Source: a virus. Taken from it: a DNA stretch of 64,000 bases. The DNA lies in the IMG/VR virus record IMGVR_UViG_3300042924_003416, positions 1-64,000 of that record; one strand, written 5' to 3'. Numbering within the stretch: position 1 is the first letter of the stretch; the number at the start of each line of letters is the position of its first letter. Under the pieces are notes generated by a model. It did no database searches. It was not told the DNA's origin and saw only the letters and a program-made list of their open reading frames with translations. The translations under genes were made by a program, and so were the position numbers. Positions 6,625 through 61,200 of this stretch are shown in pieces.

Positions 6625-6645
6625 TTAAAGTTTTAAAAACTCATA

Positions 6646-6684
6646 AAAGGAGAGTGAGAGTATAACCTCTTCCTCTCCTTTTTT
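6646..6684 (+). terminator. Rho-independent terminator
   Basis: AAAAGGAGAG.GAGAG-loop-CTCT.CCTCTCCTTTTTT. Confidence 0.8.
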
Positions 6685-6696
6685 ATTATAATACAT

Positions 6697-7239
6697 ATGG
6701 CAAATCATGTTTTAAGTTTAGAAATTCCTACTGTATCAAATCCTTGTGTACTTAAGATATTTGATACCAGTGTATATTCACCATTAGTAGGTTTGCATAA
6801 TCCAAGATTGGAAGTAGTTATTCCTGGGTTTACATATACTGCAGAATTAGCATTTACACCTGATTCTACTCCTACACTTACAGCATGTGATTTAGGATTA
6901 CAAACAGAAAACTGTGGTACATCTTATGTTAATTTGCCAGATGGTATTTATGGTATTAAATATATTGTAGATCCAGAGTGTCAAGTATATGTAAGTTATA
7001 ATCATCTTAGAATAACTTGTGCTCTAAATAGATATGAAAAAATACTTTGTACTTTGAGTATCTCAGATTGTGATCCTCCAGCAAAGATTAAGCAGAAGCT
7101 GAGAGATCTTCATTTAATTAAAATGTATTTAGAAGCAGCAAAAGCAAAAGTAGAAACATGTCATGAAAACCAAGAAGGTATGACATTATTTAATTATGCT
7201 GTCAAACTTTTAAATAAATTTGAATGTAGAAATTGTTAA
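6697..7239 (+). CDS. Putative tail-fibre hub protein, 180 aa
   Basis: Beta-rich N-terminal part (LPDGIYGIKY) plus a helical C-terminal part with Cys. Position matches crAss-like hub genes. Confidence 0.45.
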   Translation: MANHVLSLEIPTVSNPCVLKIFDTSVYSPLVGLHNPRLEVVIPGFTYTAELAFTPDSTPTLTACDLGLQTENCGTSYVNLPDGIYGIKYIVDPECQVYVSYNHLRITCALNRYEKILCTLSISDCDPPAKIKQKLRDLHLIKMYLEAAKAKVETCHENQEGMTLFNYAVKLLNKFECRNC

Positions 7240-33900: not shown

Positions 33901-33908
33901 CAATACCA

Positions 33909-40400: not shown

Positions 40401-40636
40401 AACCTAATGGTGAGGTAAATGTCCTTACTAGACAGTGGGATGTAAATGTAAAAAGTGGAAAGACTATTGATTTAAAAGAACAAGAAAGTTTTAACATGAT
40501 TCAAAGTGCAATTCCATTAAATCTTGATATGTTTAAAAGAATACATCAATCTGGAGATCCTGCTACATTAGAAAAGGCAACTAAAAATCTCGGACAAAGA
40601 CCTAATAATCCTTTTTGGAACTATAATAAGAAATAA
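37439..40636 (+). CDS. Putative cargo/ejection protein, 1065 aa
   Basis: N-terminal YQPFQPDL...KQSQYD helical domain; no Cys seen; position in the cargo train. Confidence 0.65.
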   Translation: MATYLQGVTDYIPDYQPFQPDLNFYSNLLQAKQSQYDTNWKQLNNLYGQLYGADLTHDMNIKKKDELLKQIDFNLKRVSGLDLSLEQNVDQATQVFRPFYEDQYLMKDMAWTKNWKNTYQYAEGLRKSQDKKQREQWWKEGVQGLELRRQMFKDANLEETLGMANAEYTPFVNAGQTYFDLAKKYNVGKIEEKPDSSGLYMVRKKNGELILPTLQNMFLAEYANNPGIQDMYREAAFVERMNYAYQNKDKFGSVLEAEKDYIKTKYDYIKNYASKNNAKAQDELSVTKNLQGSLEEDVKKGNVNPQQQSYAEQLQSLLAVNSAVADNAEKVNSQINDKQATTTQKGYDEDILSDLDLARLKVDAGFASIRAEQDILGAANNYADLNSEFIVKANPVGLEFLRHKHATQRQAQSARDRQAEIQQRHENAMFQKAVDYNVSRNYWSFDENGKLNTNPQANGFNSTFTTPDGTNTEGKFTFDALQKMAREQLIKNNAAGGVDALMKMIHAGVTSNGGSQFTAAQLAKMITKINPSDPTAKRILKEGSTPENLKQIQQVWNNVWNSYKKDPNGFTMRTASSGQIHNLHEVMKNWAGAHSATSLAQDFSKNQSLIQLEQLGRADMALNETRNKNYDNIKAKFSQDLNYIVKKVKEKDPKAYANVTDAKIEQAVNLMINRYVLDGKGHTEEFNKIAPEIDRQVSAILGFNIGKSTNQASEAKWYNYVFPLTNIPRILGDGRETVEGSASWVADVFDQSFDELTNLDPDNGGLTPYFPNIKKSGDDNQYGLATETTNIKVAPGVNWDPGNQSASGMFSTILGTLWDQDINQYRITLEGNQLPADVEAPTGIDKSEALAIVRELQGRLNTDDKLEPFFIGATSMSMESEKLGSMKLMAPRDVIEKVIKSMAGDDVKELDIKAKIDNIYQKGITFIAPKQTWESNRLFNMQFATPTEAALRVGPIKYEDPNGNGRYRIEKVPGSGDYIGIVELNELKPNGEVNVLTRQWDVNVKSGKTIDLKEQESFNMIQSAIPLNLDMFKRIHQSGDPATLEKATKNLGQRPNNPFWNYNKK

Positions 40637-43600: not shown

Positions 43601-46600
43601 TTGAAGCAATTGAGAACAATACTTTATTAAATACATTAGCTGATCAAGGTATATACATTGATCTAGAGGAGTTTGCTAAGTGGGTTGAAAATAAAAGATA
43701 CTTACCTGAAGAATTTTTTGATGTTAAAAATAAAAGAGTTATTACTAAAGGTTCTGTACTTTATCAAGACATACTAGATATCTTTTTTAGAGCAGCACAA
43801 CTTGCTGAAAAAAAACCGGCAGGTGATCCTTTAACTCAGAAACAATTACTTGATAAAAAAATTGAGGATCTTGAAAATGATAGAGGTATAGCTTTACAAA
43901 AAGAATTTGATAAGTATGTTGAAGCTTTTAAGAAAAGATATGGATTTACTCCAGAAGAATATGAAGCACAAGAAGAAGCAAGAGTTGCAGAAGAAGAAAT
44001 TAGTGAAGAAGATAGAAAAGAAGCAGAAAGTTTAAAAAAGTTTCTTGAAAATGCTGCAGAAAAACTACAGTCAGATAATTATATTGAAGTACAAGCAGCA
44101 GCTGAAGCTGTTGTAGAGAGGATATTTGATAAAGAAGGAGAAAGAGCTCCAGAAGAGTTCTTTCAAGAACAAGTTGAAATTTATGAAAATGATCCTGAAA
44201 AAAATGCAGTAATCAGAGAACTGATTAAAAAGTTTGATAGTGAAGACATAGCTGATAATGTTGATGCAGCATTAAAATCTCAAATCTATGGAGAGGCTGT
44301 TGCTACTGCACTTAATTTAATAAATGAAACACTTAGTAAAACACCTGCAGCACCTACAATAGATGTAGAGAATACCAAAGAATACCTTGCATATCAAGAA
44401 GCAATTCAAGCTATCAATGATAAGTTTGATGCTCTTATTTCTGAGGTAAAAGAAACTTTTAGACAAAAAGGAGTAGATGAAAATACTCCAGATGAATATA
44501 CTACTAAAACTGATTTTGAAGACTTTGATTTACCTTATCAAGAAGAAATAACAAATCTATTTGATCAGTATTTAGTAGATATATTAGGTGAGTCAATTGA
44601 TATTAAAACCAAAGATCCTCTTGAATATGAAAGATTAAGAACAAACTGGTTGGAACAACAAACACCTTTGATTGCAAAGTTTAATCAACAAGCAAAAGAA
44701 ATTGCTTTAGAAAAAGCAAGAAAACTTGCTGAACCACCTCAATTAAAATTTATTCCTGATCTTAAAATTAATGCTCAAACTACTACATATACTATAGCTT
44801 CTTTAATAAATAGATTTAAAAAGTTTTTAGAAAATGGAGAATATACTGATCCTAAGAGTAAAAAATTAATACAGTTAACTCCTGAAGATATTCAAAATAT
44901 TAATGATGATATAGAATCATTAAATGGATATCTTAATGCAAGAGTAGCTGTAGCTGCACCAAGAAATATTGCAGAACAAACTATTGACATTATTCAAGAG
45001 TATGTGATTAACAAACAAAGTGAACTTGTTGATTTACTTGATGAAGACGGCAATGTAATAGGTAGAACTTTTAAAGACAGAGGTCCTGGAGATCCTGTTC
45101 CTGATCGTACTACTCAAGTAGCAGAAGAAATAGAGAATAGTTTAAAGGACAAAGATTCATTTGAGTATAGTCCAATTAAACCTCAAGTAGATGAAGAAGG
45201 GAATGTTTCACTTTCTCCTGTTGAAAGATTGTATAATCAGTTTTTTAAAGATCCTGAAATTGTCCCTGAAGATCGTATTAGACTATTCATGGATGCATTT
45301 AAGAGAGAAGCATTTAGAGGTTGGAAAGAATTTAGATATCCTGAAAAACTTGAGGCAGTTGAAAATTCATTAAAGACTGTTGGTACATATGATGACTTAA
45401 GAAAAACTATAAGTAAATATGCATTTAAAGAATCAGCAGATGCTGGTGATTATGTTGATGGACTAATTAGAATATTCTTAACTCCTAATGCAGCTACAGC
45501 ATCTAACTTTAGTGAGTTTACTCATGATTCTACTGTACAAATTAAAGGTCGTGATATTAAGGTATCAGATATAATGTCTAGAAAAGCATTTGACAAATTG
45601 TTTTCTCCTGTTACTCCAACAAGTCCAGGTGGTATTATTACTAAGTTTAGACTAGGTATTGTAGATGGAACATACATGATTCTTTCTGAAAACGTAAAAT
45701 TATTTGACAAGTCTTTAAGAAATGGTAAAGGTGTTACAGGTGAGGTAGATTTACTTCTTGTTAGAGAAGATGGTTCAGTAGCTATTGTAGATATTAAAAC
45801 TAAATCTCTTAAAGAAAGAAAAGGTAAATTAGTTAGTGGTTGGAAAGACTTTGGTAATCCAGATGCTAAATATGAAAGTTCAACATACTTTAGAGCTCAA
45901 CAATCTATATACGGATATCAGTTTTATAATAATACAGCTATTACTCCTGATCTTAAACTAATGCCATTTGATATGTTGCTTAGTAAAGAGAAGATAGGTT
46001 ATATAGAAGATATAGATTTAGCAGAGATTCTTGAAGATGGTAAAGATACTATTGACTTAGAATACTTACCAGAGATAGAAAACTTTGGTATTCAAAAGAT
46101 AACTCCAGAGATCAAAGCTCCAATTAAAAGAGAAGAAGTAGAAGCTAAAGTTGAAGAAGGTCTTCCTGAATCAGATCCTACAATGAACACATTAAAAGAC
46201 AACTTAAACAAAGCTGTAATCTATAATGGTCGTTCAGGTAAACTAGTAAGAATGCCTGATGGTGGATTTGGTGTTGAAGTAATAACAAATGATGATATAA
46301 CTACATTACAACTTACATTAGATACATTACAAGCCAATCTTGATATAGAAAAACAATATGGTTCAGAAGAATCTATTGCTGAATTAGAAAGAGATATCAA
46401 AAGAATATCTGATGCTATTGAATCTAATAAAGGTATTACAGAAATATTTCCATTACAAGAAAATCTAAATAAAGTTACTAATGGAGATGTTTCTTTTGAT
46501 AAAGTGGGTCTTCAACTTGTAATACCAATTGATAAAGTAGGTCAGTTATCAACTGTTAAAGGCCAAGTCATTAATGCATCTTTCTCTAATAAAGAAGAAA

Positions 46601-48111
46601 CAATAGCTAGTATTAATGGTGTTAGATATGATGTATTACGTGATGCTTCAGGAAATATAACTACTCTTAGTTATATGATTAATGATCAAGCAATTAGTAA
46701 ACTAAACAAAGAAATCAAAGATATAAATGATAAGATTACTAAGTTACGTAATAATCAAGCTGTAGAAGAAACAGATGGAACAGTAAGTCGGAATTATAAA
46801 CAAGATTCAATTATAACACGTATTGCTGATTTACAAAATCAAGTAAGAACTCTTACTGGTAAAAAGACATTTCTTTCAGAAACTAATAAGAAGATGTATT
46901 TATATGGTGAGAATGCTAATGATTATATATTTGCATTAAACAGATTACCTAATAACTTTCAAAGATTAACTAAAGAAAATACAAAAGCTCAAGAAACTCA
47001 AGATCTTAAATCTATTAGTAACTTATCATTGAGTACAGCTATTGCAGATACTATTACTGAAATACTATCAGAAAACTATCCTGCAGAATTAGATATGTTA
47101 TTTGATGGTACTTTTGATTACAAGTTTAAAGCTAAACCAAAAATCAACAAGTGGATAGATACATCTATTGAAAAATTATATGCACTAGGTTATACTGTTA
47201 TAAACAGAGGTGATCTAGTTGATGATATACAAAATCAAATTAATGCTTTGTTAGAATTAAAAAATGATCTAACATTAATTAAATTAACAAGAGAACGTAA
47301 AATTAAAAATTATGCAGAAGTCAGAAAAATCTTTACAGAAGGACAACGAGTACAGGAAGGGACTAGTGTACCTAAGAATGAAAGGACTACCAGAGGAAAA
47401 ACAGAAGGAGTTCCTAGACAAGCTACAAGAGAGGAACTTAAAGACCTTGTCAAACAAGCAAGAGAAGAAATCTTAACTGATGTTTTTGATGAACCAGTAG
47501 TATTTGAAGAAGTAGGTACTCTTAGTGAAGCTATGTTAAACGATATAGGTACTATAGAAAATATAGCTAAATTAAATACTATAGAATTAATCTATCAAAA
47601 AGCATTTTTAGAGGCACAAGAAAGAGGAGAGGATGCAACTGAACTTACTAAATCATATAAGAAAAGATTGCAAGAATTAAAAACAATTAATGCTGTTTCA
47701 AATGTAGAAATTGGAGAGTATCTTATCAGTAAAAATCCTATCTTTACAGATATTTCTGGAGAAATAGTACAAGTAGTAGATATTTTTGATATATATGAAG
47801 AAGAAGTTGCTTATCCTCCAGGAACTCAAAGTACTGTTACTTTAAAGAATATTAAAACCGGAGAAGTTAAAGAATTTACAGACGCATTCTTTGCAGAAAA
47901 TTTTGAAAAAACAACTATGGAAGCAACACAACCAGAACCAGAAGTAGAATTAACACCAGTAGATATAGAAGATTCTAAAGAGTCAAAAGATACTATTGAT
48001 GATTTAATTAAAAATGGACAAGATGCTATTGCTGAAGCTAAAGAAAAAGCAAAAACATCAGATAGTCAATCAAGATGGAATAAATTAGGAAACAACTCAA
48101 AATTTTGTTAA
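40639..48111 (+). CDS. Giant cargo protein, 2490 aa, with N-terminal membrane-like region and PD-(D/E)xK nuclease-like domain
   Basis: Gly/Ala-rich hydrophobic segments and EGGQE in the N-terminal part; GEVDLLLVREDGSVAIVDIKT...QQSIY at about 45739-45912. Confidence 0.7.
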   Translation: MAEETIGGAENLESQPSAFDQLLAKSDMLNPARIEQPMAPKVNWQDNFVNPTNYIKDNTAGVSPNYPPSEVKAAQRSGAMGGSFEAILDKGMAKINGMSDVGSYAEPYAYDTSPKGTFRDRYKGYGQETFNKIGFHPLIDNETWFNQNTTFGDDLKRWSTNSLWPMVSKGFMDPIKSYQSIMNGDGLFNADEQSARDYEYYNAIGASTKGGLGGFTVNLLNSASYSMGILLEGAVEGALIGGMFSGGNPTAGALEGGAAFARKLGSLPKSLIDATKATGKLLSSVKNYSNLAKAKELYKSAGSSFGNFINPLHNTFEAYHQLKNTDNITNLARSSATAGALWHDMMSMNLALSEGKLEGGFTRYQGYDKLYNEFMADPKNGGKPPSLEEQESMMRQASKGAWLNTTLNTGLIFLSNKIAFPSITNASFLKGVPKFAFGKVVGNVGKEYQILFDPGKKALEGVFAKQKISFGNAIKSLAKPATYGKVGLNYFKANVVEGGQEVSQDVLQEAVQDYYVQSYKNKDARNYRYGAGLLGSAISKQWNTQGLETFLSGFLMGSILQAPGKIKSYATMGYNDYFKKDASYQEYIKGREQVADDVVNELNTMYKSGDYFFDPRINNYANQALAANVVDDPDSHTTKEIKDTEFAAFQSAVLGSLQRGTFDMFLNHYKGYKQATPEDIEQAWNLKPGEGVKALERFDKAIENAEKIRDRWNTAKDKMKFMANLDDYEEGSDEYKIAEIYNKAYNQSLYNYVFLHNSYDDNVNRLGKLYQNLSSLSVIKNSTFSDFVGLVDSNRLSQEIEMLKTEVESLESFGTTEALTEAARKRGLSELYSKFQEKQEELVDLFVNKSFLDNIVNEIKQEDPDLTDNQATIKAINKVVDDYDQGKSNEFIEYKEAFSELLYGMAETPEKKLKLEEEIQNVGGIDVLFDELLDTHILKNENARLIQYVNTLANPREFYEHLMRNFKFMKDLYDNREETIKEIVNGEIEAIENNTLLNTLADQGIYIDLEEFAKWVENKRYLPEEFFDVKNKRVITKGSVLYQDILDIFFRAAQLAEKKPAGDPLTQKQLLDKKIEDLENDRGIALQKEFDKYVEAFKKRYGFTPEEYEAQEEARVAEEEISEEDRKEAESLKKFLENAAEKLQSDNYIEVQAAAEAVVERIFDKEGERAPEEFFQEQVEIYENDPEKNAVIRELIKKFDSEDIADNVDAALKSQIYGEAVATALNLINETLSKTPAAPTIDVENTKEYLAYQEAIQAINDKFDALISEVKETFRQKGVDENTPDEYTTKTDFEDFDLPYQEEITNLFDQYLVDILGESIDIKTKDPLEYERLRTNWLEQQTPLIAKFNQQAKEIALEKARKLAEPPQLKFIPDLKINAQTTTYTIASLINRFKKFLENGEYTDPKSKKLIQLTPEDIQNINDDIESLNGYLNARVAVAAPRNIAEQTIDIIQEYVINKQSELVDLLDEDGNVIGRTFKDRGPGDPVPDRTTQVAEEIENSLKDKDSFEYSPIKPQVDEEGNVSLSPVERLYNQFFKDPEIVPEDRIRLFMDAFKREAFRGWKEFRYPEKLEAVENSLKTVGTYDDLRKTISKYAFKESADAGDYVDGLIRIFLTPNAATASNFSEFTHDSTVQIKGRDIKVSDIMSRKAFDKLFSPVTPTSPGGIITKFRLGIVDGTYMILSENVKLFDKSLRNGKGVTGEVDLLLVREDGSVAIVDIKTKSLKERKGKLVSGWKDFGNPDAKYESSTYFRAQQSIYGYQFYNNTAITPDLKLMPFDMLLSKEKIGYIEDIDLAEILEDGKDTIDLEYLPEIENFGIQKITPEIKAPIKREEVEAKVEEGLPESDPTMNTLKDNLNKAVIYNGRSGKLVRMPDGGFGVEVITNDDITTLQLTLDTLQANLDIEKQYGSEESIAELERDIKRISDAIESNKGITEIFPLQENLNKVTNGDVSFDKVGLQLVIPIDKVGQLSTVKGQVINASFSNKEETIASINGVRYDVLRDASGNITTLSYMINDQAISKLNKEIKDINDKITKLRNNQAVEETDGTVSRNYKQDSIITRIADLQNQVRTLTGKKTFLSETNKKMYLYGENANDYIFALNRLPNNFQRLTKENTKAQETQDLKSISNLSLSTAIADTITEILSENYPAELDMLFDGTFDYKFKAKPKINKWIDTSIEKLYALGYTVINRGDLVDDIQNQINALLELKNDLTLIKLTRERKIKNYAEVRKIFTEGQRVQEGTSVPKNERTTRGKTEGVPRQATREELKDLVKQAREEILTDVFDEPVVFEEVGTLSEAMLNDIGTIENIAKLNTIELIYQKAFLEAQERGEDATELTKSYKKRLQELKTINAVSNVEIGEYLISKNPIFTDISGEIVQVVDIFDIYEEEVAYPPGTQSTVTLKNIKTGEVKEFTDAFFAENFEKTTMEATQPEPEVELTPVDIEDSKESKDTIDDLIKNGQDAIAEAKEKAKTSDSQSRWNKLGNNSKFC

Positions 48112-48112
48112 A

Positions 48113-51100
48113 ATGGCATGTAAACTAGATAAAGATCAAGTATTAGATCTTTATGAAGCACTTTATGGAGAAGTAGCAGATAGATTAAAAGACTCATCGT
48201 TACCTCCTGTTGATTTAAATCAATTAGTACAATCAGCATATGCTGTTGTAAAACTTAATTCTGAAGATCAAGTAAAGGCTATGTTATATGCACAGGCTGT
48301 TCCTGATGTATTTCATTTAGTAACACAAGACACAGAAGTAAATGATTATTTAGTTGATAATAATTTTGACTTTACTGGTCTTGCAAAAATGAGAAAACAG
48401 TTTGCTGATCTTGCTGAAGTTGGTAAAACTGTTGCAACTAAAAAAAAGAGCAAGGACGAAATTGATTCTGAAATAAAAGATACAAATAAAACTAAAAAAG
48501 ATTTTGTACCTAAGATTGATATTGATAACGAAACACTTTGGTCATATAATGAATACAATGGTGCTAAAGTTACTAGTGCATGGACTACATCTATTCAAAT
48601 TGCCTACTCTGAAAATCCTGAAGAAGTATCTGAAGAAGACAGGAATAAAATTGATCCAGAAAAAATACTTTTTAGTGATGTAATAAAAGCTATATCTCAA
48701 ATATCTAAAGATAGAGTTGGTACTGAAGATATACAATATCAAGGTAAAACAATTGCACTTACTGCTCAGTTAACTAGAAGTGTTCCAAAAGAACTTCTTG
48801 TACAAAATGATAGAGATCATTTAGAAAAATATCCAAATACTAATGGTGTAATTGCAATTCTTACTGATGAGAAAGGTAACAATTTATACTTTAAACCAGA
48901 TGGTTCTTTGACTGATAACCCATCTGAGGGTAGGATAGTGTATCAATATTTACGTAGAGTAAATCTTGTAGATGGTAAATTACTGCTTTCTAATAGAAGT
49001 AACAGATTATATAATTTAGTTGATCCAGTTAAAATAGCTGAAAGACAAAGAGATCAAATAGTTGAAGCTAAAGGAGAAGTTACTGAAACACAGTTTAAAC
49101 AACTTGTAAAAGATATTGCTGCCCGTCAAGAAAAAGAACTAAATGATTTATATCAACTTAGAACATTACTAGAATCATCGGAACAAAATCTACAATTAAC
49201 TCTTCCTATTACAGGAGGAACATTTGGTATTCCAACAACATCAGTTAAAACTGTAACTTTAGAAGAGGCTGGAGTAACTGAAACTGATTTAAAAAGTTAT
49301 ACTCCAATTACTACTGGTGAAAAAAAGGGTCTACAATACATTATTGTAAACAAACAAAAAGCCGGTGGTCTTACAGTTAGTCAACAGTTATTTTTACAAC
49401 GATCAGATATAGATCCTGAATTAGCAGATAAAATTGCTACTATCTTAACTACCACAGTTGAGTTAAAAGGTAGACAACTTTCTCCAGATGAAAGAAAATC
49501 ATACTTTGAAATCTTTATTAATAATGCTCGTGCAAAAAAATCTAATACAAACCGTGATAGAATTCAAGCTAAAGTATTGACAATTAATAATCAAAAGACA
49601 TTAGTTGTAGAAATAAATGGTAAAAAAATTGATGATGCTATTCTTTATACTGAAGAAGGTAAACAAATGATTTTAAATCATTTACTTGCAGCTAGACCTA
49701 AGAAAGTTAGTAAAGGTAAAGAAGAAGGTTCTAATGGATATTGGCCAGCAAATGTTCAATACAATAATAAATATAGAAACACTACATTCACTGATTATAC
49801 AATTGAGGATGGTAAGATTATTAGTACAAGTAGAAAATACTTTGATGTAATTAAACCTTATGTAAAGATTACATATACAGATGAGGTATTAGCACAAGAA
49901 AAAGGTATTAATGCATATCTTAATTATGTTATCCCAGAAGGAACAATTGAGTATGAAGGATATATACCTGTAGGAAGACCTAAACCAAAAGCTGAACCTG
50001 AAAAGAAAACTAAAAAGGATAAAGAAGAAACTAAAAAAGCTCCTAAAAAACAAGCAAGAACTAAACCTGTAACTACTGGTGCATCAAAAGAAGTGTCTGC
50101 ATATGAGATTTCTATGAAGAAACAAATTAAAGATGCAGGTGGAAAAGTTGAAGGTTATAAAACTAGAATGAAGGTTGCTGATTTAGCTGAAGCAGTTGGG
50201 TTAACTGAAAAACAAATAACTGAGTTTAGGTCTATTGCATTAGAAGCTACTGCTGATACTAAGACTACAGTAAAACCAGAACCATTAACAGCACCAGAAG
50301 TTAAAGAAGTTAATATACAAAGTAATCCTTCTACTAGAATAACATTAGTAGATGATATTATTAATGGTTCTTCTAACTCGGCTTTTTATAAAAGAGATAA
50401 ACTTAACAGAGATAAACTCCGTAATAAGTTTCTTGATAAAGTATTTACTTCAAAATCAGATAGAGCTGCAGCAGAAAAATGGTGGAATAATTCTCCATTA
50501 AGTAAGTTCATTTCTCTTGAAAGAATTACTGAAGTAGTGAACTCTGATGCATTTGCAACATGGTCAGGTTATGGTATTACATTATATGAAGCTGATGGTG
50601 GGACATCTGTAGATTTATACCATGAAGCATGGCATGGATTCTCTCAACTATTACTTACTAAAGATGAGAAAGTAAAACTTTATGAAGAAATACAAAGTCT
50701 TCCTAAATATAAAGGAAAAAGTTTCTTTGATATAGAAGAAGATTTAGCTGAAGAGTTTAGAGGGTATGCAAAATCTAAAGGTAAAAAAGCAACTCGTGGT
50801 TTCTTAGGTAAAATCTTTGATAAGATTTATCAGTTTATACAAAAGCTTTTTGGAAAAACTACTAAGAAAGAAGTAGCAACAAAACTTCAAGATATTGAAT
50901 CTGTCAAAGAATTATTTGACAAACTATACAGAGCCTCTGAAAATCCAGAGATTCTATCTAATCTAAAACCTTCTATGGATAATGTAATGTTTGGGAAACT
51001 AAATAGAAGCAAAGTCATCAATGATAATTTTACATTAGAAGAGTCTAAAGAAATTGCAGATGCTATAGATAGTATGATGGCTGTTATTTTCCAAAACTAT

Positions 51101-54100
51101 AACAGAGACTTTAATACTACATCTGCAGCATTAAAACTTTTAAAAGATCCGGAAAACAAAAAAGATCTTTACAAAGATATTTATGACAGATTTGAAAGAC
51201 TAAGAATAAAATATGCTGAAGAAGCTGAAAAGAATATTGATCTTATTATTGATCCACAATTTAGCAAAGAGTTTGAATTATTAATTAAGATAACAGACAA
51301 TTTTGGAAATCTTACTGATTCACTTAGTGGTAAAGAAAAGAATAATGTTATTGCATATCATTTAGAAAAATCTAGATACAAAGTACTTGCTGATGAATAT
51401 GATGAGATCGAAGATCCAAGTAATATTGAGAAGAGTTATTTGTTTAGATTAAATGAAGGAGGTAATACAGTTTCATCTAAAGAACTTGCTAGTCAAGAAA
51501 CTATGATGTTATTGGCAAGTATCTTTGATGTAACTAGAGAAAATGGAGAGATCATTTATAATCGAGATGGTTTGTTTGGTCTTCCTAAATTACAAGATAT
51601 AACTATTACGTGGAATAGACTTGCTAAAATTTTAGAGGGTTCATTTGATGAAATAGATATGTATGTAAGAATTTTTGAAAATTCTGAAAACTATCCTGAG
51701 CTACAACAACTTCAGACTTTATTACCTAATCCTTTCTTTACAATTGAAAGTGCTATGGGTATGTATAATCCTTTAGAGTTTGAAGCAGAAACAAATTTCT
51801 GGCAAGACTTTAAAAAACCAAGGGTGCCGTTTATTCAATTAAACTTAAATAAGGAAGAAATAAAATCTAAAGATGTACTTGTAAGAGCATTTGAAGCACG
51901 GGTTGCAAAAGCAAACTTTGATGTGTATCAAGTAATCCAGGACTGGAAAAATAACTTTACTACTGCAGATTCTACAGTTAATCCATATGTATCTAAACAC
52001 TCAAAACTAGGTTACAACATTTTAAACACTGGTAAGATTGTAAAAGACTTTGGAGTAAATGGTGTATTTAATTATAAAAAAGCAGATGAATTTTTAAGAG
52101 CAATTGGTATAGTACTAGACCCATCTAGTGCAGCTATAAGATCAATTATAAACAGTACGTCAGAACCATTTGGAACTACATTTGGTGTAGACAGAATGTA
52201 TGAAGTAATCAAAAAAGTAAATAAGAGTACATCTCCTGATGCATTTCAATTTAAAAGAGATCCACTTACATATTTTATCAACGGTCTTCCAACTTCATTA
52301 AGAGATAATGAGGAAGAAAGTGAAGAAGTAAGAGGTAGAATCAGAGCTCTTGCAGAGATACAAAATGCATTCTCTGATAGTTATTCTAACTTTAGTGTTC
52401 AGACTCCAGAAGGAAATAGAGTTTGGGAACATATGGTAGACAATACTATTACAAGAATTGTAACTGCAATTAATCATGCAGAGTCTTGGGAAGAACTAAC
52501 TACTGATGAAGGGGATCCTGCACGTAGATTCCAACATATGAGATGGCTAAATGAAAAGAATAATACATTTAGTCCTTTTTCAAAACTACTTAACTCTATC
52601 TTTGATTTAGATCCTATGTCAGATACATATGGTCAAAAAATTACTGATACTAAAATACTACTACAACATGTGGCTGGTACTCAAATGGTGAGTAAAAGAA
52701 ATGAAGGTGGAACTTCTACAGCTGCTATGGATGCAACAAGTAAGTTTTTGCAAGAGTTTCATACAATGTTGTTAAGTGGTGTTGAAGAGTTTATGAGACA
52801 TGCTTCTAAGAATACATCTATGGGTATGACTCTTGACGGTGAAGTTAAAACATACAATGGTAAAAAAGCTTCTAAATTATATATAGATGTTGAATCTTTC
52901 TTAGAGTATGCTGATGGAGAAATAAAAGGGTATGATATTGTTGAAGGATATATTGCTGCAGAAGCAAACAGAATAGTTAGATTCCAACAAGGAATTGATA
53001 AGTTTAAAAACTATGCCGGCTACAATAGAAAAGTAAAAAGAAAAGACAATAAAAAAACTCCTGTAATGGCTGGTCAAGCATTTACAGCATTTGATGATAT
53101 ATTGTCTCAGGATCTACAAGCAGATCTTTATTCTATATTAGATGCAGCTTCAGAAAATCCATTAACTGATTTTGATCTTATGAAAGAATTGGATAACAAT
53201 CCTGAAATAAGAAACAGAATTAGAAAAGATGTAGCTCAATATTTTAATCTTGAGACTAATAAAAACTTAGCTAGATTACAAAAAGCTAAGTATGTAGATA
53301 ATGGATTAATGGAAAGAATCCGTGTTACAAATGAAGATCTTACAGATAAAGATATAGAACGTGCACTAATGAAAGCATATACATATAACTCTTTCATCCA
53401 TAAGATGGAAACAGTAATACTTGCATATGGTGACTTAGCACAATATAATCATGCTAAAGAAGAATTCCATAAAAGAAATGCTGGTTTAGGTTCTGGAGGT
53501 AGAGGATTCCGTGCAGATAAAAGAGCTCAGATATATTTAAGTTCTTTGAAAAACTATTATGCTGATAGACAAGGTTATGAAACTAGAAACTATGATGGTA
53601 CTCTTGTAACTGCTATCATGAAAGAAATGACATTTAATTCTGTAATGTATAATGAATACAGAGATGCCATTGAAGAAGCAACCTATGAAAGAACTAAAGA
53701 TAGAAAGAAAGCAAAACAAATTGCAGATACAGCAGCATCAGAATACTTTGGATCTAACAAACCTCAGATGAAGATTGCTGATGGTCAGGGTTTTATTACT
53801 ATGGAATACTACAGGATCCTTAAGAAAGCTGAAGGTAACTGGAGTGATCAACAAGAGTTACTTTATAGAAAAATTTCTATGGGAGAAAATATAACTGCAG
53901 AAAATGTAGTAGAATTTTTTCCACCTTATAAATTACAGTACTTTGGTAATATTCAATCAGAGGGTCTTCCTGTAAATTCATTCCATAAGTTTTCACTTGC
54001 TCCGTTAATTCCTGGAGTATGGAAATCTGGTACACCAATTTATGATTTACATGAAAAAATGATGAAAGATCAAGTAGATTATGTTTTATTTGAGTCAGGA

Positions 54101-57100
54101 TCAAAAGTAAGTCATATTGGAAATGGAGATAACATGCTTAATGAAGACGGTAGTCTAAACAAAAAGGCAGAATTTACTAAGAATATTGTCTATGCTGAAT
54201 TCTTAAAAAACCAAACAGAAATTAACTCTACCTATAAACAAAAATCAATCTTCTCAACTCAGTTAAGAAAATTAATTTTAGAGGGTCTTTATGCTCAAGG
54301 TTCAATTAAGTCTACAAAATATAAAGACATAACAAATACTAGAGTTAAAAAATATATAGACCACGTAGAAGAGTATACTGAGCTATTAAAGTTGGAACTT
54401 CTAGAAGAAATGGGATATGAAGAAACATCCCCTGGAGAATATAAAGCAAAAGATAAATCAAGTACAGCTAAACTAATAAACATTATCAGAACTAATCTTG
54501 AAAGAGAAGATCTTTTAAGTGATAATCTTATTGAGTTTATTGATGTGTATGATAATAGTGGAGACTTAGTTCATGACTTATCATTTCATCCAGAGGCTGC
54601 TAAAATAGAGAAGTTATTATTATCTATGATTAATAAGAGAATTATTAAACAGAAAGTTGCCGGAGAACCACTTGTACAAGTATCTGTTGGACTAACTGCT
54701 AATCAATTTTCTAAACCTGACTTAAAAAAAGCAACTAAAGATGAGATTAAAAAATGGGCTTCTACAACATATACACTTCCAACTTATCATAGAAAGTCAA
54801 ATGGTTATACTGCAGCTGCAAAAGTTATGATTGCAATGCAAGGGACTTATTATAATCTTTTTAATCTAGAATATGATAATGATGAAACTGTTGGTGTTTA
54901 TGATGAGAGTGGTGTTTTAAATATGGATGAATCTTTAGCTAGATTAAATGAGAAGATTAAAGATGACAAATGGTTAGATGCTAATAATGAAGCTAACAGA
55001 AAAGCAATAACATTAGTTGGTGTTAGGATTCCTGTTCAGGGTCTAAACTCTATGGAATTTGCTGAGGTATTTGAATTCTTACCACCACAAGCCGGTAATA
55101 TTATTGTTCCTCCTGCTGAGATAGTTGCTAAGTCTGGTGGTGACTTTGACATTGATAAACTTACAATCTTCATGAATACACTTGATGAAGATGGGAAAGT
55201 TATTGAAAGACAGTACAAAGACAACAATGACATTAAAAAACTTAGAGGTACTGATGAATTTGAAAATGCTGTTAAAGCTCAGAAAGCAGGATTAGAAAAT
55301 GAACTAATTCAAGATATTAAAAATATTCTTGAACTTCCTGAGAACTATGCTTCTTTGATCATGCCAAATGGTACTTTCATTCTTAAAGAAATTGCAGAAA
55401 AATTATCTGCAGACGTAATGGAATATAATCCAAAAGAAAATAGAATGACAGATGATACTGGGGAGATCAGTCCTACAAGAGTATTAGAATCATTGTATAA
55501 CGTATACAAACATGAATCTAATATTGTAGGTAAGAAAACTCTAGGTCTTGGTGCAATTGAAAATACATTTAATGTTATCATGAATACCATTGGTGCTTAT
55601 ATGCCAGATACTTATGTAATAAAAGAAGTAACAAGAAAAAGTAACATGAGGCTGAGACATAATAAGATGGAAAGAAGAGGTAAAGAGGTCATCTCTATGT
55701 CAGACCTTTACGATGTTGATGGAACAAATAAAATATCAGATGTTATTTCTCAGATGATCAATGGATGGGTGGACGTTGAAAAAGATGCATGGATCTTCTT
55801 TATCCAGGGTAACTATGAGGTTGCTCCAACATTATTATATCTTATTAAAGCTGGTGTACCTGTAAAAGAAGCAATTTACTTTGTATCTAATCCATTGGTT
55901 AGAGAGTATGTAGATGAGCAACGTCTTGCAAAATCTACATTTGCCGATGTACTTAACAAAAAACCTGACGGTCCAGGACTTGCAAAATATAAAGCAGCAT
56001 CTGAAGTAATTAAAAAATACTTTACTAAAGATGAACTTGCAGGTAATTCAAAAAATGATGATAGATATTTAAAAGGACAAGAACTTTTAGAAGATTATTT
56101 TAAAGATAAAAAACAAAAGCATTTTACTGAAGAAAACATGTTGAATCTTATTCAAACGGATGATAGAAAAAGTAATATGGCAAAAGCTATGTTCTTACAT
56201 TATCTAGAACTAGAACAACAGATTGCTGGTTATACTGCACTTAAAATGGCATCTAATCCAGATACTGCTACTAAGTCTACTCTTTCTGATGTAGAACAGA
56301 CAGAGGCTAATATTGAGAATTTATTCTTTGACCCAAGAGTTCCATTAGAGATTGTTGAAGCTATGATGGAGGATTCTATTTTAAAGTCATTCTTTAATGG
56401 TCCCCTTGCACTAGCTGTAAGTAGACCTTTATTTAAATTAAGATATCACAAGGAAATTAGTGAATATTTAATTGCTAGAAAAGGTCAAATAAATAATGAT
56501 CTTCAAACTACATTCCCTGGACAGAATATTGAGATGTTTAGTAATATCTTTAGAAATGACCTTGTAAGTTTTATTCTGCAAAATGCTATTAGAAAATATA
56601 AAAAACAGGATGGATTTATGTCTTTAGATATGGAAACAACTATTCCTGTATCAATGGCTAAAGAATTAAAAAGAGGAGCCTTTGTAAAGAACGGTACTTT
56701 GTACATGGATATGAAGCAGATTAAAAAAGAATTTAAAGATAGTGCTTGGGTTAGAAACTCTGAAGTAGAGAACAGTTATAAAGACAGAGAACTTTATGAA
56801 TTAGATCCTTCTACTTTCATGAATCATTACGGTGCAAACTTTGATGAATATTTAAAATTTGTTGCTGAGAGAGAATATATTAGATATATAAAACCATTGA
56901 ATACTGAGTTTACAAATTCATTTGAATTTCAAGAAGAACTTGATAGCACTAAAGAATTATTTCCAGATTTAACTAATGAAAAAGCTGTAAGGTATACATA
57001 TGAAAAACTGATTGCTATAAAAGCATTAGATAATTCATATAATTTCTTCCATCTTTTTAGAGATGATGATAATTCATTTTCTGTAAGATTGTCTAAGTTG

Positions 57101-58267
57101 ATACAAAACTATCCTGAACTAGCTAAAAATTATCCTATTATAGGTAAATTAAAACTTGATTCAACTAAAGAGAATGATGCATTTAATATATTACTTGCTG
57201 ATAAAGACTTTGATAATGATAAATCAAATCTTTATACACAAGATTTAAAAAAACTTTCTGATAGAACAGTTGTAAAATTAACTGACCCAGAAGAAAATGC
57301 TAGACTAAGTGACATGTTTAAATACTTAAACACTTTTGCTTTTTTACAAACCGGATTAAACAAGACTAAGTTAAGCTTTACTAATGTAGTGGACTATACA
57401 GACTTTTTATCTATTGTAGAAGGTGAGTCTAGTAAGTTTATTGAAGCTTTAAATAAAAAAGGATTTACACTTTTAGATAATTTCTATGATCAATTCATAA
57501 GAGAGAATAATAAAAAAATTAGTCCAAATAGAGATCGATTTAAAGATTATTTATCTACTATTGATTATGAAAATGTAGAAAGAATACTTCCTGTAGAAAA
57601 TCCTACTATAAAGAAAGATAGAAATGCTGAATCAGATGTAGAAGAAGTTATTTTAGATTCTACTAATCAAGATACAATAGCTGAAGTAAAAAGATTTAAT
57701 CTTAAGAATACAGATGATCCTAATGTTTATACTTACAATGATAAGAATGCTACAAATGCAACTTACTATTTAAATCTTGGTAAAAATAATCCTGATGTTG
57801 TCTTTGTACATAACATAAGTATTTATGAAATTAAACCGGAACAAATTGCTGCAGGTAGAAATCTTGGAGGTTCTGCTTACTTTATGACAGAAGTAGGAGA
57901 TATGTCAGTTAATTTCCCAACTGATTTATTTGCAAGTGTTGTTAATGGTAGAAAGATAGACATTGCATCAGATCAATATCAAACACTTAAAAATATTTGG
58001 GAGAAAAGAATTAATATACTTAAACAAATTCAAGAAAAAGGTGGTAAACTTGCATTTCCTGAGTATGGTTTTGGTGATCCTAACACCATGCCTCAAGAAT
58101 TATTCGTATATTTAAGTAAGAGATTGTTTGAAGAGTTTGGATATATCAATCCTGGTTCTACAAAATATAACCAGGTAAGAGAAATGATAATAAAAACTCA
58201 AGGAATCTCTGATGAAGAAATAGAAATGCAATTAGAATTAGAAGAAGACCCTTTTAAATGTTCATAA
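48113..58267 (+). CDS. Virion-associated double-psi-barrel RNA polymerase (crAss/phi14:2 gp66-like) with zincin-like domain, 3384 aa
   Basis: Catalytic GGDFDIDK (55142-55156), plus RIPVQ, ADGQG, FHKFS and FESGSKV. HEAWH...EEDLAE at 50621 onward. Confidence 0.88.
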   Translation: MACKLDKDQVLDLYEALYGEVADRLKDSSLPPVDLNQLVQSAYAVVKLNSEDQVKAMLYAQAVPDVFHLVTQDTEVNDYLVDNNFDFTGLAKMRKQFADLAEVGKTVATKKKSKDEIDSEIKDTNKTKKDFVPKIDIDNETLWSYNEYNGAKVTSAWTTSIQIAYSENPEEVSEEDRNKIDPEKILFSDVIKAISQISKDRVGTEDIQYQGKTIALTAQLTRSVPKELLVQNDRDHLEKYPNTNGVIAILTDEKGNNLYFKPDGSLTDNPSEGRIVYQYLRRVNLVDGKLLLSNRSNRLYNLVDPVKIAERQRDQIVEAKGEVTETQFKQLVKDIAARQEKELNDLYQLRTLLESSEQNLQLTLPITGGTFGIPTTSVKTVTLEEAGVTETDLKSYTPITTGEKKGLQYIIVNKQKAGGLTVSQQLFLQRSDIDPELADKIATILTTTVELKGRQLSPDERKSYFEIFINNARAKKSNTNRDRIQAKVLTINNQKTLVVEINGKKIDDAILYTEEGKQMILNHLLAARPKKVSKGKEEGSNGYWPANVQYNNKYRNTTFTDYTIEDGKIISTSRKYFDVIKPYVKITYTDEVLAQEKGINAYLNYVIPEGTIEYEGYIPVGRPKPKAEPEKKTKKDKEETKKAPKKQARTKPVTTGASKEVSAYEISMKKQIKDAGGKVEGYKTRMKVADLAEAVGLTEKQITEFRSIALEATADTKTTVKPEPLTAPEVKEVNIQSNPSTRITLVDDIINGSSNSAFYKRDKLNRDKLRNKFLDKVFTSKSDRAAAEKWWNNSPLSKFISLERITEVVNSDAFATWSGYGITLYEADGGTSVDLYHEAWHGFSQLLLTKDEKVKLYEEIQSLPKYKGKSFFDIEEDLAEEFRGYAKSKGKKATRGFLGKIFDKIYQFIQKLFGKTTKKEVATKLQDIESVKELFDKLYRASENPEILSNLKPSMDNVMFGKLNRSKVINDNFTLEESKEIADAIDSMMAVIFQNYNRDFNTTSAALKLLKDPENKKDLYKDIYDRFERLRIKYAEEAEKNIDLIIDPQFSKEFELLIKITDNFGNLTDSLSGKEKNNVIAYHLEKSRYKVLADEYDEIEDPSNIEKSYLFRLNEGGNTVSSKELASQETMMLLASIFDVTRENGEIIYNRDGLFGLPKLQDITITWNRLAKILEGSFDEIDMYVRIFENSENYPELQQLQTLLPNPFFTIESAMGMYNPLEFEAETNFWQDFKKPRVPFIQLNLNKEEIKSKDVLVRAFEARVAKANFDVYQVIQDWKNNFTTADSTVNPYVSKHSKLGYNILNTGKIVKDFGVNGVFNYKKADEFLRAIGIVLDPSSAAIRSIINSTSEPFGTTFGVDRMYEVIKKVNKSTSPDAFQFKRDPLTYFINGLPTSLRDNEEESEEVRGRIRALAEIQNAFSDSYSNFSVQTPEGNRVWEHMVDNTITRIVTAINHAESWEELTTDEGDPARRFQHMRWLNEKNNTFSPFSKLLNSIFDLDPMSDTYGQKITDTKILLQHVAGTQMVSKRNEGGTSTAAMDATSKFLQEFHTMLLSGVEEFMRHASKNTSMGMTLDGEVKTYNGKKASKLYIDVESFLEYADGEIKGYDIVEGYIAAEANRIVRFQQGIDKFKNYAGYNRKVKRKDNKKTPVMAGQAFTAFDDILSQDLQADLYSILDAASENPLTDFDLMKELDNNPEIRNRIRKDVAQYFNLETNKNLARLQKAKYVDNGLMERIRVTNEDLTDKDIERALMKAYTYNSFIHKMETVILAYGDLAQYNHAKEEFHKRNAGLGSGGRGFRADKRAQIYLSSLKNYYADRQGYETRNYDGTLVTAIMKEMTFNSVMYNEYRDAIEEATYERTKDRKKAKQIADTAASEYFGSNKPQMKIADGQGFITMEYYRILKKAEGNWSDQQELLYRKISMGENITAENVVEFFPPYKLQYFGNIQSEGLPVNSFHKFSLAPLIPGVWKSGTPIYDLHEKMMKDQVDYVLFESGSKVSHIGNGDNMLNEDGSLNKKAEFTKNIVYAEFLKNQTEINSTYKQKSIFSTQLRKLILEGLYAQGSIKSTKYKDITNTRVKKYIDHVEEYTELLKLELLEEMGYEETSPGEYKAKDKSSTAKLINIIRTNLEREDLLSDNLIEFIDVYDNSGDLVHDLSFHPEAAKIEKLLLSMINKRIIKQKVAGEPLVQVSVGLTANQFSKPDLKKATKDEIKKWASTTYTLPTYHRKSNGYTAAAKVMIAMQGTYYNLFNLEYDNDETVGVYDESGVLNMDESLARLNEKIKDDKWLDANNEANRKAITLVGVRIPVQGLNSMEFAEVFEFLPPQAGNIIVPPAEIVAKSGGDFDIDKLTIFMNTLDEDGKVIERQYKDNNDIKKLRGTDEFENAVKAQKAGLENELIQDIKNILELPENYASLIMPNGTFILKEIAEKLSADVMEYNPKENRMTDDTGEISPTRVLESLYNVYKHESNIVGKKTLGLGAIENTFNVIMNTIGAYMPDTYVIKEVTRKSNMRLRHNKMERRGKEVISMSDLYDVDGTNKISDVISQMINGWVDVEKDAWIFFIQGNYEVAPTLLYLIKAGVPVKEAIYFVSNPLVREYVDEQRLAKSTFADVLNKKPDGPGLAKYKAASEVIKKYFTKDELAGNSKNDDRYLKGQELLEDYFKDKKQKHFTEENMLNLIQTDDRKSNMAKAMFLHYLELEQQIAGYTALKMASNPDTATKSTLSDVEQTEANIENLFFDPRVPLEIVEAMMEDSILKSFFNGPLALAVSRPLFKLRYHKEISEYLIARKGQINNDLQTTFPGQNIEMFSNIFRNDLVSFILQNAIRKYKKQDGFMSLDMETTIPVSMAKELKRGAFVKNGTLYMDMKQIKKEFKDSAWVRNSEVENSYKDRELYELDPSTFMNHYGANFDEYLKFVAEREYIRYIKPLNTEFTNSFEFQEELDSTKELFPDLTNEKAVRYTYEKLIAIKALDNSYNFFHLFRDDDNSFSVRLSKLIQNYPELAKNYPIIGKLKLDSTKENDAFNILLADKDFDNDKSNLYTQDLKKLSDRTVVKLTDPEENARLSDMFKYLNTFAFLQTGLNKTKLSFTNVVDYTDFLSIVEGESSKFIEALNKKGFTLLDNFYDQFIRENNKKISPNRDRFKDYLSTIDYENVERILPVENPTIKKDRNAESDVEEVILDSTNQDTIAEVKRFNLKNTDDPNVYTYNDKNATNATYYLNLGKNNPDVVFVHNISIYEIKPEQIAAGRNLGGSAYFMTEVGDMSVNFPTDLFASVVNGRKIDIASDQYQTLKNIWEKRINILKQIQEKGGKLAFPEYGFGDPNTMPQELFVYLSKRLFEEFGYINPGSTKYNQVREMIIKTQGISDEEIEMQLELEEDPFKCS

Positions 58268-58268
58268 T

Positions 58269-61200
58269 ATGGTTTGCCAAGTACAATTAAATTCAATAAA
58301 GTTTTTAGAAAAAAATGGAGCTACAGATGATATAAGAAGAATTATCAATGAAGATCTGTTTAATAAATTAAATGATAGCCTTACTGATAAGGCAGAAAGA
58401 ATATATGGTCTTGAAACTAATGGTAGTAAACTTTTTAGTGTAAATACTTCTGAACATATTGATCCATATAGATCAACCTACTGGAGAGATGCTAAGGTTA
58501 GAGTACTAAGAGCTGAACCTAATGTAAAACTTTTTGAAAGACTTCAGGAACTTTTTAATGCACGTAATGACAAACCGATGTTTATGAAAGCTCCAGAAGT
58601 GGATTATTCATTAAAGATTGTTAATGCTTTAAATAAAATTAATAGAAATAAATTTGAATCTTCAAAATTACAAGGTTGGTTAAATGATCTTCAGAAACAA
58701 GGAGTATCTGCTCAACAATTAGAACTTTTTAAAGAAGTAGCTAAACCAGGTATGACTAAAGATGAAATAGCTGCTGCTATTGCTGCTACTTATAGTTATA
58801 CTATTGAGATTAATACTGCTAAAACACCAAAAGTAGGTGAAAAATTTTTAGATAGAGAATATGGTTATGAATTAGAAGTGACAGAAGAAACTTTACAAAA
58901 TCAAATTAATGATGGTTTTGTAGATAATAATTTAAATACTCAATATTATTCTAATCTAACAGTTCCCGGAGGTACTAACTATACAGAACAAGAAATAGCT
59001 ACACCAGCAATTACACCAAGTATTAAAGGACATGCTCAGTTTGCTACAGATAAAGGTATAGGTTGGTTTAGAAGTGATGAGCAATCTATTAAAGAAACTG
59101 GTCCTATTAAATATTTTGTAGAAAATGCATTTGAAGATATACAATCTGAGTTATTTACTAATATAGAAGAAGCTAAAAAATTACAAAAAAAATGGTCACA
59201 AGATTATCCTGAATTAAAATTTGAAATAGTAAAATCTTCAACATATATTTCTATATTATCAAAAACCCGTAGAGTACTAGAAGTACAATCTGATTTGTTT
59301 CAGAAAGGTAGAGATAGAGAAAATTTAATAGAAGATAAAAACATGTCTTCTAACATAACAGATTCTAATAAAGAAGAATTTGAAGTTGCAAAAAGATTAG
59401 GAATTGAAGAAGAAGATGAAGAAGGAAATTTATCATATACTTATAAAGGTGTAAATTATTTTCAAGACATCTTTACAGATAACTATTTAAAATATGGATT
59501 ACCTAGTTCTAATACAAAAGGAAACCAATTCCTACAACTACTAAACAAAGACAATAACTGGATTAATTTCTTTACTAAGTCTATTATACAAGATAGTGCT
59601 AAGAAAGGATATGAAAAAGTATTGTTTCCTTCTGGTAATACAGCTAGTAAAGTAGAAGGACACACTACTTTAGAAGAGTTTAAAAAACAAAAAGAGGATA
59701 GAATTAGATTTTTAGATGGTGAAATTAATGACCCTGAAAATATAGAAAGAAGAATTGAAGAAGCTAAAAAAGAAAAAGAACAGGTTAAACAAGAACTTGA
59801 AAGAGTAGAGAGAGAAGGTTTTGGTGCTTTAAAACCTATCTATAACTTCTATGAAAATACTGTAACTAATATTCTTAAAAAACAAGGCTATAGTCCTAAA
59901 AAAATTACAGATGAGTATGGTAATACTTGGAATGAAATTACTATAGATCAAACAAGAGATACATCTCCTATAGCTTTTATGAGAGAAAATGTAAACCCTG
60001 CTCTTCAAGAGATCAACGGAGTTCTTTTTATGGATGTAAATCTAGATCAATTACAAGATCAAAGATCAAAAGAAATTGCTGAAGTACTTGCTCAAAGATT
60101 ATCACTTAGTACTAATACACAGTTTAGAAATGTATCAGCTGAAGAGGCTGCAAATATTTTAAAGAACCGACCTGTTAAGTATAACGGAGAACCAGCATTT
60201 TACTATGCAGGAACAGTTTATGTAGTAGGAGAAAATATTAATGTGAGGACTGTACTACATGAATTCTCACATCCGGTCTTGAATGCATTAAGACAGACCA
60301 ACAACATCCTATTTCAGAATCTCTATAATCAAGCACTTGCTACTGAAGAAGGTCAGGGTATCTATTACTATGTAGTAAACAACTATCCAGAACTAGAAGA
60401 AAACTCAGATCTATTCAAAGAGGAAGTACTTGCTTATGCAATGCAGTTAAAAGCACTCAACAGAATCAACAATGACATTGAGACAGAAGGGTATCAAAAC
60501 TTCATGAATAAACTTCTTGCTGCTATCAAACAACTACTTAGAAAACTATTTGGTAGTAAAATAGATGTAGCTAAGTTAGATGTAGATACTTCATTAGAGG
60601 AGATGGCAGATATGCTCTTGGATAAAGACTTTGAATTCAAGACAGATAGAATAAATGAAGAAGACCTTGCAATGTTTTCCAGGGAAGTTGTTGAAAGGGC
60701 TCGTGAACTAAACAAGTTTTCTAATAAGGAGTCTATGCAGAAAGTTGTTAAAAGTACTTTTGAAACAACTAGAAGAGTACTCTCTGAAGCTGAAGGATTT
60801 AAAGGAGATAAAGCATCTAGAAAATTATTAAGAGAATCTTTATTTGAAAAAGGTACTAATAGATACATCCGTGAAGTCTTAAGAACATTAAGAGACAACT
60901 TAGATAGTAATATTGAAGACCAAGCTCAAAATCAACTCATACAAAATGCATTAGATACTGCTAGAGAAGAAATGGATGTGGATTTAGAAAGAGCAACGGC
61001 ACTGGTAAATTCATTGGATACAATCAATAGCATGACTAAGAACATGTTATTAGATATATCTAAACTTAGTGGAACTAATATCAATAACAGAAGTACTATT
61101 GCACTATTGATGCTTTACAAATCTAATTCAAAAGCCTGGTTAAAAATGGTTCAAGAAATAGATGAGGCATTGACATCTGAAGGTGGTTTTGTGGATACTA

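Follow-up and report, generated by a model that had tools for sequence, protein, structure and literature searches.

Cysteines at the facing ends of the RNA polymerase cargo proteins of a freshwater crassvirus as candidate links of a covalent ejection chain

Introduction

The first 64 kb (64,000 nucleotides, hereafter the window) of the IMG/VR virus record IMGVR_UViG_3300042924_003416 carries a long structural operon, which is closed by four very large genes on one strand. These genes are named Z, A, B and C here, and B encodes a virion RNA polymerase. The record is 85,773 bp long with an estimated completeness of 71%; near-identical DNA is present in many lake-water metagenomes, and the phage is uncultured. 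Crassviruses have to bring several megadaltons of protein, including a polymerase of 2,000-3,400 residues, in order through a narrow tail. A first-pass annotation of the window had pointed out that the Cys residues of these cargo proteins lie at the ends that face each other in gene order, and had suggested that the proteins are joined there by disulfides or metal bridges. In this study, the terminal Cys residues were counted and compared across homologues, gene junctions and rearranged loci, and pairing of the facing ends is strongly supported by this comparative evidence.

Results

The RNA polymerase cargo module

The four genes, the codons of their Cys residues and the conserved motifs are listed in Table 1. 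The region of B around the catalytic motif (residues 1801-2800) had a single phmmer match in the PDB, 6VR4 chain A, which is gp66 of phage phi14:2 (E 6e-17), and B matched gp66 by BLASTP at E 7e-9. A tblastn search with the C-terminal part of B found crAss-like phages only (30 records). A is weakly similar to gp47 of phage crAss001 (BLASTP E 4e-8). Residues 1-97 of C are 35% identical to residues 1-96 of phi14:2 gp65, and C also resembles crAss001 gp49. Local phmmer runs of proteins of phages A4, phi14:2 and crAss001 against Z, A, B and C gave no output, and the matches reported here came from BLASTP. No PHROG or Pfam family was found for Z, A, B or the part of C in the window; the only Pfam match of A was a sub-threshold one to FlxA, and Pfam placed a LysM domain near the C-terminus of full-length C, beyond the window. 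The HEAWH motif of B and the HEFSH motif of C are conserved, and neither protein matched a Pfam or PHROG peptidase family. The gene order A-B-C at the end of the structural operon recurs in 75 loci, and homologues of Z, which start with MATY.. and mostly have 0 Cys, are found at the equivalent place in related loci. Judged by these similarities, Z-A-B-C is the RNA polymerase cargo module of a distant freshwater member of Crassvirales. Cargo proteins have been detected in virions by mass spectrometry for phi14:2, according to its record annotation, and for crAss001 in the available text of Bayfield et al. (PMC10172136). By analogy with these homologues, A, B and C would be packed in the virion and ejected.

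Table 1. Positions of the cargo genes, terminal Cys codons and conserved motifs in the window
Feature	Position	Strand	Description
Z	37439..40636	+	1065 aa (amino acids), 0 Cys by script count; upstream of the putative chain
A	40639..48111	+	2490-aa cargo protein; single Cys is the last residue
A Cys2490, TGT codon	48106..48108	+	C-terminal partner at junction 1
B	48113..58267	+	3384-aa virion RNA polymerase; Cys3 and Cys3383 only
B Cys3, TGT codon	48119..48121	+	N-terminal partner at junction 1; invariant column (40 B homologues)
B HEAWH, residues 837-841	50621..50635	+	Zincin-like motif from pattern search; H837, E838 and H841 invariant
B DFDID, residues 2344-2348	55142..55156	+	RNA polymerase catalytic aspartate motif; D2344, D2346 and D2348 invariant
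B Cys3383, TGT codon	58259..58261	+	C-terminal partner at junction 2; invariant column
C	58269..65603 of the record	+	2444 aa, of which 1910 aa in the window (to 64000); single Cys at position 3
C Cys3, TGC codon	58275..58277	+	N-terminal partner at junction 2; invariant column (36 C homologues)
C HEFSH, residues 664-668	60258..60272	+	Conserved in the C alignment; from pattern search

Cysteine content of the module

Cys residues were counted by script over the translated open reading frames (ORFs), with C counted on the full record. Z, A, B and C contain 4 Cys in a total of 9,383 residues, and none of them is more than 3 residues away from the A/B or the B/C gene break. About 155 Cys would be expected at the rate of the other 19 large plus-strand ORFs in the window (195 Cys in 11,829 residues), and random placement would put all 4 Cys no further than 3 residues from the four facing termini with a probability of approximately 3e-12. 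The genes are closely coupled: at both junctions a single nucleotide separates the stop codon from the start codon. For A and B, the first-pass annotation had counted 3 Cys over about 5,900 residues, which is exact; the part of C that it had left unread contains no further Cys, so that Cys3 stands alone.

Conservation of the terminal cysteines

A, B and C were each searched against a collection of 5.8 billion proteins, and Cys residues were tallied in the best 120 matches of each. Only matches of at least 3000 aa for B, 2300 aa for A and 1900 aa for C were kept, which dropped 10, 2 and 2 of the 120, respectively. In all 110 B homologues a Cys is present among the first 8 residues and another among the last 10, and 103 of these proteins have no other Cys. 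The Cys of A is confined to the last 10 residues in 115 of 118 homologues, and 117 of the 118 have no internal Cys; the three without a C-terminal Cys are shorter and have unrelated tails. Among the C homologues, 108 of 118 have an N-terminal Cys only. Nine others have no Cys, start elsewhere and look like truncated gene calls, and one (P0312) has a C-terminal Cys in addition to the N-terminal one. Conservation in crAss-like RNA polymerase operons, which the first-pass annotation had named as a check on its proposal, was thus observed for all three proteins.

A wider, profile-free search with the last 1200 residues of B against 1.84 billion cluster representatives (50% identity) gave 1,296 matches. 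The best 150 of these included 145 new proteins, of which 120 were at least 3000 aa long, and Cys was present at both ends in 112 of the 120. Cys3 and Cys3383 of B and Cys3 of C are as invariant in the alignments of Table 1 as the catalytic residues. The residues next to the Cys vary fully across the representatives (for example ..DPFKC, ..FMKHC.. and ..LKxCF..) while the Cys itself is constant, and short terminal motifs are kept within clades.

Cysteine pairs at gene junctions

Large ORFs were tabulated in 75 related viral loci with 10-kb flanks, which are 25-71% identical, and a Cys within 12 residues was scored as a junction Cys. Five of the 75 loci are without an exact DFDxDK, the pattern used to name B; they were left out of the per-protein tally and kept in the junction count. 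Successive large ORFs in these loci form 183 junctions. Both sides carry a Cys at 123 of them and neither side does at 60, and the number of one-sided junctions is 0. Relatives inherit the pattern, so the counts do not represent independent events, and the rearrangements described below are the informative cases. The 60 Cys-free junctions are Z/A or further upstream, plus one break within B in locus L014; the sequence there is 99.95-100% identical to an unsplit protein, which indicates a frameshift that arose in assembly or very recently. The Z/A junction never has a Cys pair, though it is equally tightly coupled, and an N-terminal Cys is never present in the first protein of the putative chain. 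The spacing from stop to start ranges from -13 to +29 nt, plus three larger gaps. The first-pass annotation had read the facing Cys as pairs in gene order; the invariant columns, the complete lack of one-sided junctions among the 183 and the joint gain or loss of partners agree with that reading.

Split, fused and shifted genes

In locus L017, a cassette with a GIY-YIG homing endonuclease and a kinase-like domain splits C. The two pieces of C are 94% and 99% identical to P0314, which is unsplit and without Cys around this place, and both new ends of L017 have gained a Cys, one of them one residue from the new C-terminus and the other at position 3 of the new N-terminus, which starts with MAC. 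The GIY-YIG gene (PF01541, E 2.7e-7) lies at L017:21937-22545 between the pieces of this close relative of P0314. The AAA_33 kinase-like domain arrived with the endonuclease and now heads the downstream piece, as a mobile cassette that adds a cargo domain. A second split was found in L043, where C is broken at about residue 570 of the unsplit form in L071 and a Cys is present on each new end.

Fused forms were also found. L029 encodes a 6381-aa protein in which B is joined to a C-like sequence, and its only Cys are at position 5 and at the last residue. A downstream partner was predicted for this protein and the DNA was then examined; the next ORF encodes 1298 aa, starts with MSC and has a single Cys. 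The same L029 gene (L029:7386-26531) contains a second polymerase-like region (residues 5149-6130) after the B part and the C-like part, which is similar to residues of about 1600-2600 in the B proteins of relatives. In L070, the slots of A and B are filled by a 4665-aa protein, whose only Cys is 4 residues away from the C-terminus. It follows a Z homologue, which matches other Z homologues at E 2e-16, begins like an A protein, and has its B region offset by about 1,240 residues. By phmmer its first 1900 residues matched only themselves, with no similarity to A, and a hidden Markov model built from 19 A proteins gave no match in it, nor in control proteins.

The position of the break can also shift. 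In L050, L054 and L057, B is 4,100-5,260 aa long and C only about 1,100 aa, and Cys are present at the new boundary. In crAss001 the HExxH region belongs to the end of gp47, and in the window phage it lies near the beginning of B; the pair is kept in both.

Cultured and gut crassviruses

The same rule was observed in cultured phages. In phi14:2, the sole Cys of gp67 (1797 aa) is the last residue, gp66 has Cys at positions 3 and 2179 of 2180, and gp65 has Cys at position 3. In crAss001, gp47 has its sole Cys at 2339 of 2341 and gp49 at position 5, and gp50, which carries DFDVD, has Cys at positions 5 and 2404 of 2412 and an internal one at 1334. gp47 is encoded on one strand and gp50-gp49 on the other, and the partners of this joint are not adjacent in any transcript. 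The gut Suoliviridae cr50_1, cr7_1, cr113_1, cr60_1 and cr4_1, four of which are recoded, have an A+B-sized protein of 4,328-5,443 aa in which the N-terminus lacks Cys and 0-3 residues separate a Cys from the C-terminal end; position 3 or 4 of the protein that follows is a Cys. The pair is also kept in cr108_1 (Steigviridae) and in cr110_1 (Intestiviridae), in the latter only when the start is placed at the second ATG. The proteins of gut members have 0-12 internal Cys each, which is still far below average.

Two features of the gut records were seen in addition. In cr108_1 (MT774385), at L084:21170-21461, the annotated polymerase gene ends in the middle of the catalytic motif (..GSD) and the next ORF resumes about 290 nt further on (..DIDK..); this interruption looks like an intron or another insertion in the active site. 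The cargo genes of cr7_1, cr113_1, cr60_1 and cr4_1 (L082, L088, L089 and L091) have many in-frame stops under table 11. In three records each gene has 7-73 in-frame TAG, and the count in cr7_1 reaches 148 stops, which fits the stop-codon recoding that is known from gut crAss-like phages.

Other cysteine patterns and zincin-like sites

Some upstream ORFs of the window, at 7464-9842 and 5245-7239, are very rich in Cys (62 Cys in 792 aa or 7.8%, 16 in 459 aa and 10 in 180 aa), in contrast to the Cys-free cargo genes, and may encode disulfide-rich outer parts. Two proteins of 1683 aa and 1157 aa at 28849-37382 have few Cys, which are clustered as CxC doublets at 635/637/654/656 and at 812/814/832/834/847/849/867/870; these may be metal-binding or knotted modules. 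Zincin-like sites number two in the lineage of the window phage, one each in B and C, and the only one of phi14:2 is in gp65; the B-type site of crAss001 is in gp47.

Discussion

Our comparison indicates that the facing-end Cys of A, B and C probably form bonds between the proteins, most likely disulfides, and that these bonds would chain the cargo. The C-terminus of A would bond the N-terminus of B, and the C-terminus of B would bond the N-terminus of C. The result would be a head-to-tail chain A-B-C of about 8,300 residues, in which two disulfide joints take the place of peptide bonds, as in a polyprotein. The Cys lie 9 residues or less from the free ends, and the two bonds would thus make a nearly linear thread that is topologically close to the fused polyproteins. 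A, B and C would travel inside the capsid and enter the host on ejection. Their interiors are kept free of Cys, probably because stray disulfides in a crowded, oxidised particle would block the unfolding needed to pass the tail. In crAss001, the cargo must partly unfold for this passage, as Bayfield et al. argue in the available text (PMC10172136). Cys residues that are kept at the ends of proteins otherwise purged of them appear to be selected for their thiol. The tie might set the order or the completeness of ejection and might be undone in the reducing cytoplasm of the host.

A precedent for the kind of bond is found in the cyanopodophage A4 (Anabaena phage A-4L). According to the available text of the cryo-EM study (PNAS 2025, PMC12002296), a disulfide between gp27 Cys1715 and gp26 Cys5 is modelled in the packed pre-ejectosome. 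Cys1715 is the sole Cys of gp27 (1717 aa) and Cys5 that of gp26 (1114 aa), and the ejection protein gp29 has none. This precedent makes a disulfide plausible as the bond of the terminal pairs in A, B and C.

Several points weigh against such a chain. The disulfide between A, B and C is drawn from sequence comparison and from A4, and A4 is an analogy rather than a homology as far as BLASTP sees, since A4 gp26-gp29 gave no match to Z, A, B or C at E 1e-3. Assembly takes place in a reducing cytoplasm, so the bond must form after release, and the gut members live without oxygen. The internal Cys of gut relatives weaken the argument from a Cys-free interior. A 1:1:1 chain of A, B and C in each particle is an assumption. 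The reading of the L070 protein as an A-B fusion is based on gene order, length and the N-terminus. Eight of the 120 B representatives in the wider search have no Cys in the first 8 residues, although two of these have one at positions 9-12. Among the exceptions, a 61%-identical relative of P0383 (L092) shows the normal pattern; P0416 could be traced to a partial locus only (L032), and P0468 matched no locus. Apart from these points, a complex prediction that paired a C-terminal segment of A (200 residues) and an N-terminal segment of B (600 residues), run without alignments or controls, gave ipSAE values of 0.00 and 0.00, which decides nothing. A thioredoxin (PF00085) was not found in the record, which is 71% complete, and Erv1/Alr (PF04777) had no match in it; the latter result is uninformative because control genomes had none either.

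The terminal Cys could instead be independent anchors, each holding its protein to some other partner: a further copy of that protein, the inner capsid or portal, or a different cargo protein. Disulfides are indeed formed in crAss001 particles, in the tail and portal vertex, and many of them join different structural proteins, according to the available text of PMC10172136. The sequence is silent on which Cys meets which. Independent anchors would not be expected to come and go in twos, and no junction of the 183 is one-sided. The splits in L017 and L043 gained Cys on both new ends and the fused forms lost both, and this gain and loss of two Cys at a time argues against independent anchors. 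The absence of an N-terminal Cys on the first protein, and of a C-terminal Cys on the last one in all but P0312 of the 118 C homologues, also does not fit them. In A4, the equivalent Cys bond each other in the cryo-EM model (PMC12002296). We consider anchoring to be unlikely on this evidence.

A role of the facing Cys as metal ligands appears to be rather less likely still. They might hold the termini together by a zinc or iron bridge, or act like the cysteine switch, which keeps matrix metalloproteases latent, by capping the zinc of the HExxH site until ejection. B and C each have a conserved HExxH, and a link between thiolate and metal would also open when conditions change. One Cys per end, however, supplies only two ligands, and neighbouring His or Asp residues are not conserved. 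The pairs also follow the gene breaks and not the HExxH motifs: phi14:2 has one motif and two pairs, and L017 and L043 have two motifs and three pairs. In A4, the pair is a disulfide and the peptidase is a separate protein, gp28, in the available text (PMC12002296).

It is very unlikely that the Cys merely accompany a signal at the gene ends, with the thiol of no importance; such a signal could be a DNA or RNA element for translational coupling or module exchange, or lie in terminal peptides that serve packaging or turnover. The spacing of 1 nt at both junctions of the window and the short terminal motifs conserved within clades would fit such a signal. The A/B partners of crAss001 are encoded on opposite strands, however, and the spacing elsewhere varies from -13 to +29 nt and more, which together rule out a DNA or translation-coupling signal. 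In addition, the flanking residues change while the Cys stays, and retention of a residue that is otherwise purged must be selected; the Z/A junction is equally tightly coupled and never has Cys. Two further candidates were rejected. Fusion by read-through or a +1 frameshift at the TAA-N-ATG junctions was discarded because the spacing is not conserved. A split intein with trans-splicing was discarded because the Cys are 0-9 residues from the free ends and leave no room for intein halves; no Pfam intein family was found in A, B or C, and the new ends in L017 consist of a 22-aa tail and, as head, an AAA_33 kinase-like domain.

If the facing Cys of A, B and C form disulfides, a more far-reaching idea may be put forward, which we regard as possible rather than probable. 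A terminal disulfide might replace a peptide bond over evolution. The cargo would then be a single thread, joined covalently and more than 8,000 residues long, which passes N-to-C through the tail in gene order with the first protein dragging the rest, and which is cut by the reducing cytoplasm of the host, freeing the polymerase. Gene splits, one of them caused by a homing endonuclease, would be tolerated since a Cys pair restores the thread. A disulfide chain, if it exists, would explain the free tolerance of splits and fusions among these cargo genes. The rule that Cys lies only at facing ends spans marine and lake phages to human-gut families, and it yields a testable hypothesis of covalently strung cargo.

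No account of terminal Cys in crassvirus cargo turned up in the literature searches made, within the titles, abstract openings and passages that these covered. The word 'cysteine' occurs 0 times in the crAss001 atlas, the bioRxiv preprint on phi14:2 (Drobysheva et al.) and the 2026 N4 paper, and the phi14:2 preprint also has neither 'Cys' nor 'disulfide'. A bond of this kind is already known in A4. New here are a proposed chain with several joints that includes the polymerase, conservation across the order, and the trade-off with gene fusion.

The cargo of the cultured crassviruses (gp67-gp66-gp65 of phi14:2 and gp47-gp50-gp49 of crAss001) is homologous to A-B-C and follows an identical Cys rule. 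The window phage differs from them in its larger proteins, which are 22-41% identical over short stretches, and in a zincin-like region that lies in B and not in A. The available text of the preprint by Drobysheva et al. states that some crAss-like phages fuse the module into a polyprotein that is likely cut into its separate parts. Such fused forms have the same domains as the window phage on one polypeptide, and the Cys pair is absent at the fused joint. The proposed A-B-C chain would be the non-fused equivalent of this polyprotein, and its joints would be disulfides at the gene breaks.

Ejected proteins of other short-tailed phages share the empty interior. gp50 (the virion RNA polymerase, 3500 aa), gp51 and gp52 of N4 and gp15 and gp16 of T7 contain 0 Cys; the single Cys of T7 gp14, at position 2, is without a partner on the neighbouring termini. 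These proteins are Cys-free or nearly so, like A, B and C, but facing terminal pairs are absent in N4 and T7. This suggests that an interior without Cys is general for these ejected proteins and that the terminal pairs are not. A close parallel is gp27-gp26 of A4, which like A, B and C are products of successive ejection genes with their sole Cys at the facing ends. A4 differs in that it belongs to Saffermanviridae, has one pair and not a chain of two or more, and involves no RNA polymerase. In the available text of PMC12002296, its bond is presented as stabilising a folded ring, and that text neither generalises it into a rule nor treats it as a replacement for a peptide bond. If A, B and C are linked as proposed, the single disulfide of A4 would extend to a general way of making an ejectable polyprotein from separate genes.

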